A DNA stretch of 63,719 bases, filler included, from Candidatus Woesearchaeota archaeon (GTDB taxonomy: Archaea; Nanobdellota; Nanobdellia; Woesearchaeales; J072), in assembly GCA_003695265.1 (NCBI GenBank). It is 4 parts of 4 records of this genome, joined end to end, with 100 filler letters (N's around TTAATTAATTAA, not from the genome) between each part and the next. Parts side by side here need not be neighbours in the genome. Positions count along the whole stretch, not along the records: positions 1 to 27,801 come from RFII01000091.1; 3 more parts are not named here. The stretch is one strand, 5' to 3'. Below, one piece after another: positions 4,321-47,362 of this stretch. The stretch's first letter is position 1. Each line of letters begins with the position of its first letter. Below the pieces are notes generated by a model, which saw only the letters and a program-made list of their open reading frames with translations, searched no databases and was not told the DNA's origin. Position numbers and translations under genes: made by a program.

Positions 4321-4560
4321 GCGGGGATGCCGGAGCGGTCAAAGTCTGGGTTCAGCGTTCAGAACGCAGAACCTTGAAACGACCAGACGGGCCGGGCTTA
4401 GGACTCGGTGGCTTAGTGCCTACGGGGGTTCAAACCCAAACTTTTGGGCAAGCCAAAGGTTTGATCAAAATTCCGTCAAGTGAGGCGTTCACAGTTGAAC
4501 GTGAAACCTCACGATCAAAGCTGAGTAACCAGAAGTTTGGTGAAAGTCCTCCTCCCCGCA
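4321..4560 (+). tRNA. tRNA-Leu(TAG) with two non-canonical introns: D-loop ~4343-4386 and T-loop 59/60 4435-4546
   Basis: Spliced product GCGGGGATGCCGGAGCGGTCAA|ACGGGCCGGGCTTAGGACTCGGTGGCTTAGTGCCTACGGGGGTTCAAA|TCCTCCTCCCCGCA folds as a class II tRNA. BHB-type helices GGTC/GACC and TTCA/TGAA carry 3-nt bulges. Confidence 0.9.
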
Positions 4561-4574
4561 TAATTATTTCTAGG

Positions 4575-4655
4575 TTAATTTTGTTGTGCTAAAAATTTGC
4601 TGCCTTAAAAAAATCACAAAATTTCTTAGCCCCGACCACGCAACCCAAATATTAA
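4575..4655. repeat. Dispersed AT-rich palindromic intergenic repeat, copy 1
   Basis: TTAATTTTGTTGTG...AAATTTG...AAAATCACAA..ATTT.TTAG.CCC...CCCAAATA aligns with 12080-12159; internal inverted repeat GCTAAAAATTT/AAATTTCTTAGC. Confidence 0.7.
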
Positions 4656-4699
4656 GGTCTCATTTAGTTGTTTGGGCTTTAGCAAGAAAATCCTGAAAG

Positions 4700-11568: not shown

Positions 11569-12078
11569 ATGCAAAGGATAAAAGTTGTGCTTGGGGATAT
11601 TACAAAGCAGAAAGTCGACGCAATCGTGAATGCCGCAAACCAGACTCTTCTAGGAGGAGGAGGGGTTGACGGCGCAATTCACAAAGCAGCAGGCCCTGAG
11701 CTGTTAGAGGAATGCAAAAAAATAGGAGGGTGCAGGACAGGCGAGGCGAAAATAACAAAAGGTTATAAGCTGCCAGCAAAGCACGTGATTCACACTGTCG
11801 GACCTGTGTGGACAAGAGGAGAGAATAATGAAGAAAACCTTCTAGCAAATTGTTACAATAACTCTTTGGAGCTTGCTGCAAAGCACAAAATAAGAAGCAT
11901 TGCATTCCCGTCAATAAGCACAGGCGCTTACAGGTTTCCCGTTGAAAGAGCGGCAAAGATTGCTGTTAAGGAGATAAATAAGTTTCTTGAAGGCAATGAT
12001 TCCATCGAGCTCGTGCTAATTGTTTGCTTTGATGATAAAACATTTAAGGCTTACCAGTCAGCGCTAAAAGAAGGCTAA
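11569..12078 (+). CDS. Macro-domain O-acetyl-ADP-ribose deacetylase (YmdB-like)
   Basis: [40 protein letters not shown]. Confidence 0.95.
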
Positions 12079-12079
12079 C

Positions 12080-12180
12080 TTAATTTTGTTGTGTTGGAAA
12101 TTTGTTTCTTATAAAATCACAAGAATTTTTTAGTCCCATCGCACTTCCCAAATAATTAATGCTTATCACAATTAAGATGA
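12080..12180. repeat. Dispersed AT-rich palindromic intergenic repeat, copy 2
   Basis: Aligns with 4575-4655. Its 3' part ATCACAATTAAGATGA (12165-12180) matches 8066-8081 at 15/16. Confidence 0.7.
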
Positions 12181-12232
12181 CTTAAAGCACAAAAGAACAA
12201 AATTTATAAAGCAGAATAAGTAAGGAATTAGC

Positions 12233-38691: not shown

Positions 38692-38884
38692 ACGGCTGTG
38701 GTCCAGTGGTAAGATGCGACCCTCCCAACCTTTTTCCGGAATAAAAAGAATGGAGAGAGGTCGTGACCCGGGTTCAAAACAGATTTTTGCCAAAATCTGG
38801 TAAAAAGCGTTTAAGTGAGACCTTCACTGCGTGAAGTCTCACGAACCTCAACGGTAAAATCTGGTGAAAGTCCCGGCAGCCGTA
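38692..38884 (+). tRNA. tRNA-Gly(CCC) with canonical 37/38 intron (38728-38757) and T-loop 59/60 intron (38779-38870)
   Basis: Spliced ACGGCTGTGGTCCAGTGGTAAGATGCGACCCTCCCA|AGGTCGTGACCCGGGTTCAAA|TCCCGGCAGCCGTA folds as a cloverleaf. BHB helices CTCC/GGAG and TTCA/TGAA carry 3-nt bulges; TTTATATA promoter upstream. Confidence 0.9.
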
Positions 38885-46975: not shown

Positions 46976-47362
46976 TGTAGGGAAGCTGTAAGCCGCCTTC
47001 TGTCAACCTTCCCTTCAAAGGAACAGGTTGCCTTAACATTTAACTAAGCGTCTTAATGACTTGCACTGGCCAGGGCTCGCCGTTTCACCCATTCCACAAA
47101 GAGCGTCCGCGGGTTATCTCGGTTTTGTCGCCAAAACCTTCTCCAGCATCACCCTCCAATGTGGCGGTCTCGTTTCTGAGCGGTTGCCATCCCTTTCGAG
47201 ATCTCCGAAGAGTGGCCTGTTTTTAGTGGGCGGACTTTCCTCACAAACTTTTGCCAAAGTTTGATCAAATGCAGTTAAGTGGGATGTTCTCGTTGCGCTC
47301 GAAATCCCACGAAAATTATTTAATCCTTGGCAAAGTCTGCGAAAGTTAAGCGCTTCCCTACA
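46976..47362 (-). ncRNA. rnpB: RNase P RNA, with an ~100-nt insertion in the P3 region
   Basis: Minus strand has GAGGAAAGTCCGCC (CR-I), GAAAC and GTGAAACGG motifs, ACAGAAGGCGGCTTA (CR-V, pairs as P4), and termini GTAGGGAAGC/GCTTCCCTAC forming P1. Confidence 0.92.
47243..47345 (+). repeat. Copy of the tRNA T-loop intron element inside rnpB (antisense to the RNA)
   Basis: CAAACTTTTG-CCAAAG-TTTGATCAAA...AAGTGGGA...TCCCACGA...AAAGTCTGCGAAAG matches the tRNA-Leu intron 4435-4546 and the tRNA-Gly intron 38779-38870. Confidence 0.8.

Follow-up and report, generated by a model that had tools for sequence, protein, structure and literature searches.

What is the structured sequence that occupies two different tRNA genes and the RNase P RNA gene of a Candidatus Woesearchaeota archaeon, how did it reach these genes, and what does it have to do with the birth of archaeal introns? 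The stretch of DNA analyzed here (the window; 63,719 nucleotides) consists of four contigs with N's between them. An initial annotation, made from this sequence, had placed one structured element family at three unlinked loci; all three copies are present where it located them, but they lie on only two contigs, C43 and C44, which are N-joined in the window. The copies share a common architecture, being alignable with a mean column identity of 74%, and their pairwise local alignment scores of 51, 61, and 58 were attained in 0 of 1000 dinucleotide shuffles (means ∼18, maxima 31–34). With the rnpB copy read on the rnpB sense strand, its similarity to the other two is at chance level (139 and 177 of 1000 shuffles).

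The element is a protein-less piece of DNA of ∼70 bases. In its conserved unit (∼56–75 nt), hairpin 1 is followed by a spacer that is rich in A and ends with TYAA, then by the bulged hairpin 2 and GAA; hairpin 2, directly after TYAA, is imperfect and has a conserved foot motif. Whole copies measure 56 to 148 bp, the right end being ragged. The second 3′ arm that had been described as part of the shared architecture is present in intron-type copies and in the rnpB copy but is otherwise absent from the conserved unit. Compensatory changes in the central stem are borne out by strong covariation, with double changes at 19 of 20 pairs in 48 copies as against 0 of 500 shuffles, although this alignment was fitted to the structure and hence leans towards it, and the copies are not statistically independent; among 16 copies from the home genome, double changes occur at 9 of 20 pairs. 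A scan at Rfam gathering thresholds matched rnpB only, and no Rfam family corresponds to the two-hairpin element.

In both tRNA hosts, as had been proposed, the element coincides exactly with the intron at position 59/60 in the T-loop. The tRNA-Leu(UAG) gene (4321–4560, plus strand) was missed by ARAGORN, which detected zero tRNA genes in the window, and was read from the sequence, its T-arm and acceptor stem being able to pair; ARAGORN output for the genome with relaxed intron settings was mostly noise and was set aside. Of its two introns, the one in the T-loop (4435–4546, plus) is in its entirety copy 1 of the element, in sense orientation, with hairpin 1 at 4437 to 4463 (its loop containing a small extra stem), hairpin 2 at 4480 to 4512 (a bulged stem preceded by YAA and followed by GA), and a closing arm at 4529 to 4546 which locally repeats the 3′ arm of hairpin 1 and adds TGAAAG. 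The latter completes a strict predicted bulge-helix-bulge (BHB) motif, a TTCA/TGAA helix with two 3-nt bulges. This intron is 96% identical to that of a tRNA-Ser gene on C91. The D-loop intron (4343–4386, plus; read from the sequence) belongs to a separate hairpin family; a near-identical intron is found in a tRNA-Leu gene on C92 and its core is inverted on C61. Members of that family fill D-loop or T-loop introns in both orientations (C92, C61, C85, C86, C89, and C22).

The tRNA-Gly(CCC) gene (38692–38884, plus; assigned on the basis of its anticodon-loop BHB) likewise has two introns, a canonical 37/38 intron (38728–38757, plus; read from the sequence) that bears no relation to the element, and a T-loop intron (38779–38870, plus) that is in its entirety copy 2, again sense, with hairpin 1 at 38780 to 38799, hairpin 2 at 38815 to 38842, and the closing arm at 38853 to 38863. 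Here the predicted BHB is relaxed by a single extra unpaired G. The intron is 97% identical to that of tRNA-Gly(UCC) on C26 and 89% identical to that of tRNA-Glu on C85. Excision in silico of either the Leu or the Gly T-loop intron restores a 7-nt T-loop. Around the Gly and rnpB loci, the window is covered by Logan contigs from one DNA run, which may stem from the source sample. A candidate Gly intron form with hairpin 1 only was rejected, as it rested on a Logan contig joint that omits 67 bases (22 letters on the short side) and the assembly contains no such form. The window tRNA-Gly(CCC) has A1:U72 in place of G1:C72, and the end of C79 carries what may be a second CCC-like tRNA-Gly 3′ half, lacking a T-loop intron, so that the window gene may be redundant. 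Among the genes listed, there is no intron-free second gene for Leu(UAG), Gly(GCC), Gly(UCC), or Thr(UGU).

The third host, rnpB, lies on the minus strand (46977–47361 as read from the P1 ends and the fold; Rfam RF00373 match at 46980–47291, 101.6 bits), and the element copy in its P3 loop (47244–47339, plus) is therefore antisense to it. Hairpin 1 (47244–47263), hairpin 2 (47279–47310), and the closing arm (47325–47339), all on the plus strand, are recognizable, and P3 is lengthened by the copy. No BHB motif is present on the rnpB transcript strand, and P3 is predicted to fold as a single continuous stem. A gene for Rpp29 was also found in the genome. In relatives P3 is mostly short, in some with the same base sequence, and the element model had no match at 30 rnpB loci; among 29 further rnpB loci, one (G061) has an element copy abutting the rnpB 3′ end, and an unpublished genome, G120, has another P3 insertion at this position. 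Two relatives (L049 and L050) carry other hairpin extensions in P3 that are unrelated to the element. RPE and STRR insertions occur in bacterial rnpB.

Iterated nhmmer searches of the home genome gave 22 matches, from which one weak coding match (C97, E 0.27) and two contig-overlap duplicates (C65=C84 and C75:1-37=C26) were removed, leaving 19 distinct copies, of which one is the rnpB copy and the other 18 are within or adjacent to tRNA genes. Among the sense copies, 11 occupy T-loop introns, of which two are nested and located at contig starts, and one occupies a D-loop intron; another two form a tandem pair ahead of tRNA-Thr, with a duplicate of the tRNA 5′ end after each. Besides the rnpB copy, the five antisense copies include three located upstream of the 5′ ends of tRNAs and one in a T-loop intron. 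The latter, on C76, might have arisen by a simple inversion between the arms of an intron, which could not account for antisense copies that lie elsewhere than in introns. When only 101 copies from relatives were used to build a profile, it recovered 18 home-genome matches at E < 2e-6, including all three window copies, and the element model is thus not circular. The two other repeat families of this genome (58 and 24 copies) are mostly intergenic as listed, and the preference for stable-RNA genes thus appears specific to the two-hairpin element.

Relatives also carry the element. Models were positive in at least 24 of 151 order-level genomes, at least 25 of 151 in a phylum draw, and at least 3 of 151 in a class draw, the best 33 candidates having been scored in each genome without a match, some of which may be positive; all element-positive genomes fall in one order. 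Exact pattern matches in named records comprised three Woesearchaeota, one unassigned archaeon, and two contigs labeled Methanosarcinales, with a further 23 metagenome stretches containing the element, while two patterns had 0 matches in viral contigs. The flanks of the two Methanosarcinales-labeled contigs (L054 and L056) match metagenome contigs ∼70% identical to this genome, and these contigs are possibly mislabeled or misbinned. Head-to-tail arrays and BIME-like mosaics occur in G223 (L110, L129, L133, and L140) and in metagenomes (L213–L231), and arrays or mosaics of the element with a hairpin-1 variant lie beside tRNA genes and within T-loop introns. In three genomes (L108, L121, and L122) the element sits at the 3′ end of what we presume, from the C-terminal peptide, to be the SRP54 gene, a protein gene thus hit repeatedly.

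The copies in relatives record how insertion alters its target. Direct repeats of at least 12 bp (12–58 bp) flank 42 of 109 copies (118 were tabulated, nine with short flanks being left out), with controls at 0.25% (397 swapped flanks) and 0.3% (323 random sites). Local alignment, which left out 3 of the 118, placed 47 of 115 copies between repeats of 14 to 72 bp versus 20 of 1499 controls, and seven of the 47 were then set aside as element–element or weak. As judged by eye, the 40 duplications involve a tRNA 5′ end (14), a protein start (5), a tRNA 3′ end (13, element antisense), or a protein end (7, antisense), with one outside a gene; an intact gene lies on the hairpin-2 side in 39 of 40, the other being the one outside a gene. 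A duplicated gene end, protein genes included, is the commonest outcome in relatives and was missed by the initial annotation, whose view that the element inserts in stable-RNA genes holds for tRNA, rnpB, and 16S but does not cover the protein gene ends that are also hit.

Empty orthologous sites, which the same annotation had proposed as a check, hold one copy of the repeat and so confirm insertion. The start of the RLI gene is present once in G148 and twice, flanking the element, in the congeneric G023; across seven sites in genus g81, four are empty, two are filled with a duplication, and one has the element slightly outside. The G205 comparison for locus L087 had matched a non-orthologous tRNA and was discarded. 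The 5′ junction is sharp, with the left repeat ending at hairpin 1 and the preceding base being that of the target in 40 of 40, and the 3′ junction is ragged (−6 to +72). Mismatches are concentrated at −3 to −6 relative to hairpin 1 (42 of 240 positions, as compared to 20 of 425), a profile which neither uniform drift nor random tails reproduces. Both orientations, target duplications, and empty orthologous sites bear out a non-autonomous element that is, with high confidence, mobile at the DNA level; the family is real, recently active, and apparently unpublished.

Intron-type copies show how this insertion relates to splicing signals. At each of five sites (tRNA 59/60, 53/54, D-loop, and 37/38, plus 16S), the start of hairpin 1 is 0 to 2 nt away from the predicted 5′ splice site, and the stem is closed by a locally repeated 3′ arm of hairpin 1, which follows each copy's own hairpin-1 variant. 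The 16S introns headed by the element share one site, after GGATTAGAT, in three genomes (L053, L080, and L119). We take this site to correspond to approximately E. coli 793, presumably inside the segment to which widely used V4 primers anneal; if so, amplicon surveys could miss lineages with this intron. When BHB motifs were scanned for automatically, 20 of 75 non-duplicated copies were flagged, ∼16 of which appear true by eye; the corresponding figures were 2 of 40 for duplicated copies and 37 of 750 for shuffled flanks, and several introns read by eye were overlooked. The genome encodes RtcB and EndA (190 aa, on C17, L001:456-1028; best PDB match 3IEY_A), with one EndA gene detected in a genome full of non-canonical introns; relaxed BHB motifs need broad-specificity (αβ)2 or ε2 EndA enzymes, according to the available part of one report (PMC5829648). 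The proposal that the insert is made harmless by splicing or by folding out agrees with these models, in which it would form either a predicted BHB intron (tRNA and 16S) or a helix extension (rnpB P3). The occurrence of element-headed predicted introns at five sites strongly suggests, at the level of sequence, that insertion is linked to archaeal intron birth, and the element probably seeds such introns.

A co-occurring HUH or transposase gene, which the initial annotation had suggested looking for, did not emerge. The home genome (94.6% complete) has no match to Y1_Tnp, TnpB, RVT_1, Cas1, or GIY-YIG, and in relatives element-positive and element-negative genomes showed no clear difference for Y1 (16/41 versus 8/32), RT (10/41 versus 8/32), or GIY-YIG (9/42 versus 11/32). 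No transposase was found among 99 ORFs neighboring element copies, and no element was found beside 30 Y1 loci; nor did these ORFs, or the surroundings of 60 Y1, RT, and other loci, reveal an autonomous IS with element ends. Twenty-two GIY-YIG loci gave 0 element model matches, no copies lie near the one tyrosine recombinase in the genome, and flank-to-element guide pairing or covariation did not exceed noise. Readings as a C/D-box guide, attC site, or retron were rejected, as both orientations occur and the motifs are absent.

Our preferred reading, to which we assign a probability of roughly 0.68, is that a protein-less two-hairpin DNA element is copied to new sites in trans and survives there as a predicted intron or helix. 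A strand that had entered a gene by ∼15 to 70 nt would break or stall, and its 3′ end would be extended with the element, exactly from hairpin 1, by a template switch onto a single-stranded donor, an enzyme acting in trans presumably carrying out the copying. Synthesis would then rejoin the target upstream, leaving the variable stretch duplicated as observed. Where the repeat covers a gene end, an intact gene would result beyond hairpin 2; where it is the hairpin-1 3′ arm, a closed stem would result which, with four complementary bases, makes a BHB that EndA and RtcB may process; and in rnpB the same closed stem would only lengthen P3. Established T-loop introns would then likely spread among tRNA genes by conversion, as some T-loop copies probably have. 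We regard the template-switch chemistry as having even odds. The broader designation of an archaeal “introner” of a new mechanistic class, which copies by template switching without a known-family transposase, builds a BHB by duplication of its own arm, gives birth to tRNA and 16S introns, and lives unspliced in rnpB, is tentative and somewhat doubtful.

The main rival is SINE-like retroposition, in which element RNA, possibly the excised intron, would be reverse-transcribed at a nick by an RT acting in trans (DGR, retron, or viral). Duplications of variable length, a sharp junction opposite a ragged one, errors close to the junction, and the head-to-tail arrays of G223 are as expected of such a process, and the junctions coincide with RNA ends, the sharp end being the predicted 5′ end of the excised intron. 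Mismatches in hairpin 2 (14 A-C versus 4 G-T) are compatible with an antisense RNA, but hairpin 1 has the opposite bias (6 versus 3), and wobble mismatches give no consistent RNA strand. Because RT presence is not associated with the element, the home genome has no RT match, the element lacks a poly(A) tail or CCA, and one site type shows both orientations, we consider retroposition unlikely.

A second possibility is that the element only nests in older BHB introns and tolerant helices, the introns themselves spreading by conversion as in Thermoproteales. At least 23 tRNA genes of this genome have 59/60 T-loop introns, many of them with two or three introns in all. Of 23 intact T-loop introns, 9 contain the element and 14 do not, with intron ends common to both, so that some copies may have entered existing introns; moreover, introns of different tRNAs are up to 96 to 97% identical, and nested and mosaic inserts are common. 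Nonetheless, at five unrelated sites the intron opens with hairpin 1 as its own arm, making random nesting unlikely, the same hairpin 1 heads intron-less copies between duplications, and the closing arm tracks the hairpin-1 variant of each copy. We hold nesting alone to be quite improbable.

The initial annotation had labeled the element MITE- or REP-like, and its mobilization as a MITE of an IS1634/IS1549-like DDE transposase or as a REP/IS200-type HUH substrate was also weighed. The bulged hairpin is reminiscent of HUH substrates. Variable repeats of 8 to 514 bp made by IS1549 and IS1634 are described in the available text of one report (PMC2266710). However, terminal inverted repeats scored ≥8 in 0 of 40 duplication-bounded copies (mean 3.4 versus 3.5 in controls), the right end is not fixed, the duplications of 14 to 72 bp are neither short nor of fixed length as in MITEs, and no Y1/RAYT gene is linked, the 30 Y1 loci having no adjoining element; this label did not hold, and such mobilization is very unlikely. 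Least credible of all is conservation of the sequence at these genes as a regulatory signal or functional RNA of the host, for despite strong covariation and a preference for highly expressed genes, the element occurs in either orientation, its sites vary within a genus, the duplicated gene ends are dead, it has no Rfam match, and 127 of 151 order-level genomes show no match among the best 33 candidates of each.

The element resembles a non-autonomous mobile repeat and an Introner and fails the tested traits of MITE, REP/IS200, casposon, and Ssn. To our knowledge, IS200/IS605 elements make no target duplication; the long duplications of the two-hairpin element set it apart from them and from REP/BIME. 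Casposons are defined by a Cas1-solo casposase and terminal inverted repeats, neither of which was found, in the home genome and on the element, respectively. Eukaryotic Introner elements, mostly TIR transposons, create a spliceable intron upon insertion, but these introns are spliceosomal, whereas the predicted signal here is a structural BHB. In Ssn/NTS, so far as the accessible text describes them (PMC11893778), hairpin repeats flank a small GIY-YIG gene, a link the two-hairpin element lacks. Like prokaryotic MITEs, REP/BIME, and Rickettsia palindromic elements in the excerpts available (PMC10969869 and PMC3733652), it is short, non-coding, hairpin-forming, multicopy, mosaic, and tolerated in genes; unlike them, it has no terminal inverted repeats, GTAG/CGTC tag, or linked transposase, has long variable duplications, and generates a predicted splice motif. 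IS1549 and IS1634 share its long variable-length direct repeats but, in the sections available (PMC2266710), are 1.5- to 2-kb DDE elements with defined ends, as compared to 56 to 148 bp and a ragged right end here. Integration at archaeal tRNA genes, exemplified by Caldiarchaeum tRNA-Thr, also leaves a partial tRNA duplicate flanking the insert, and the part of that report available to us (PMC3293823) proposes a mobile element as an intron source; in contrast to that type, the two-hairpin element has no fixed attP or internal integrase and duplicates any target, protein genes too.

Closely similar BHB introns across tRNA isotypes and positions are known in Thermoproteales (Fujishima et al. 2010, via PMC4090602; bioRxiv 10.64898/2026.10.13.758758), and the available portions of these sources propose spread at the DNA level by a mechanism they describe as unknown. 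What sets the two-hairpin element apart from the introns they cover is that it is also found away from introns, in antisense orientation, in the rnpB and 16S genes, and flanked by target duplications for which empty orthologous sites exist. Short hairpin BHB introns in archaeal 16S genes (PMC4496867) are, like those here, ORF-less and at conserved sites, but the site after GGATTAGAT is not among the loci in the accessible part of that report, and its intron is headed by the element that also occurs in tRNA introns. In the openly accessible literature, to which the search was confined, no description of the two-hairpin element was found.

The arrival route of archaeal tRNA introns is an open question, and in Asgard archaea no general route was found, according to the text available (bioRxiv 10.64898/2026.10.13.758758). 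Since a single sequence is seen in all states (flanked by duplications with empty sites, forming predicted introns in 16S and at four positions of tRNAs, and forming a helix in rnpB), this route becomes testable. The sharp hairpin-1 end, the errors at −3 to −6, and the intact gene on the hairpin-2 side constrain the mobilizing enzyme. Practical effects include tRNA calls missed by ARAGORN in the window and assemblies broken by element copies.

The larger of the other two repeat families resembles a genuine MITE. It is a ∼110-bp intergenic repeat (window 4566–4687 and 12071–12191; 58 copies genome-wide) whose ends are inverted and whose C-rich core is conserved, and it has the TTAAGTGAG motif in common with the hairpin-2 foot of the element. 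The other is an intergenic hairpin with a GC-rich stem (C30:238-316 and 23 other loci); four tRNA genes have a related hairpin upstream of them, which in two cases is joined to the element. Upstream of tRNA-His, C27:2974-3117 contains a degenerate tRNA-Gly-like 5′ fragment between two antisense copies, a possible transduction from an earlier site.
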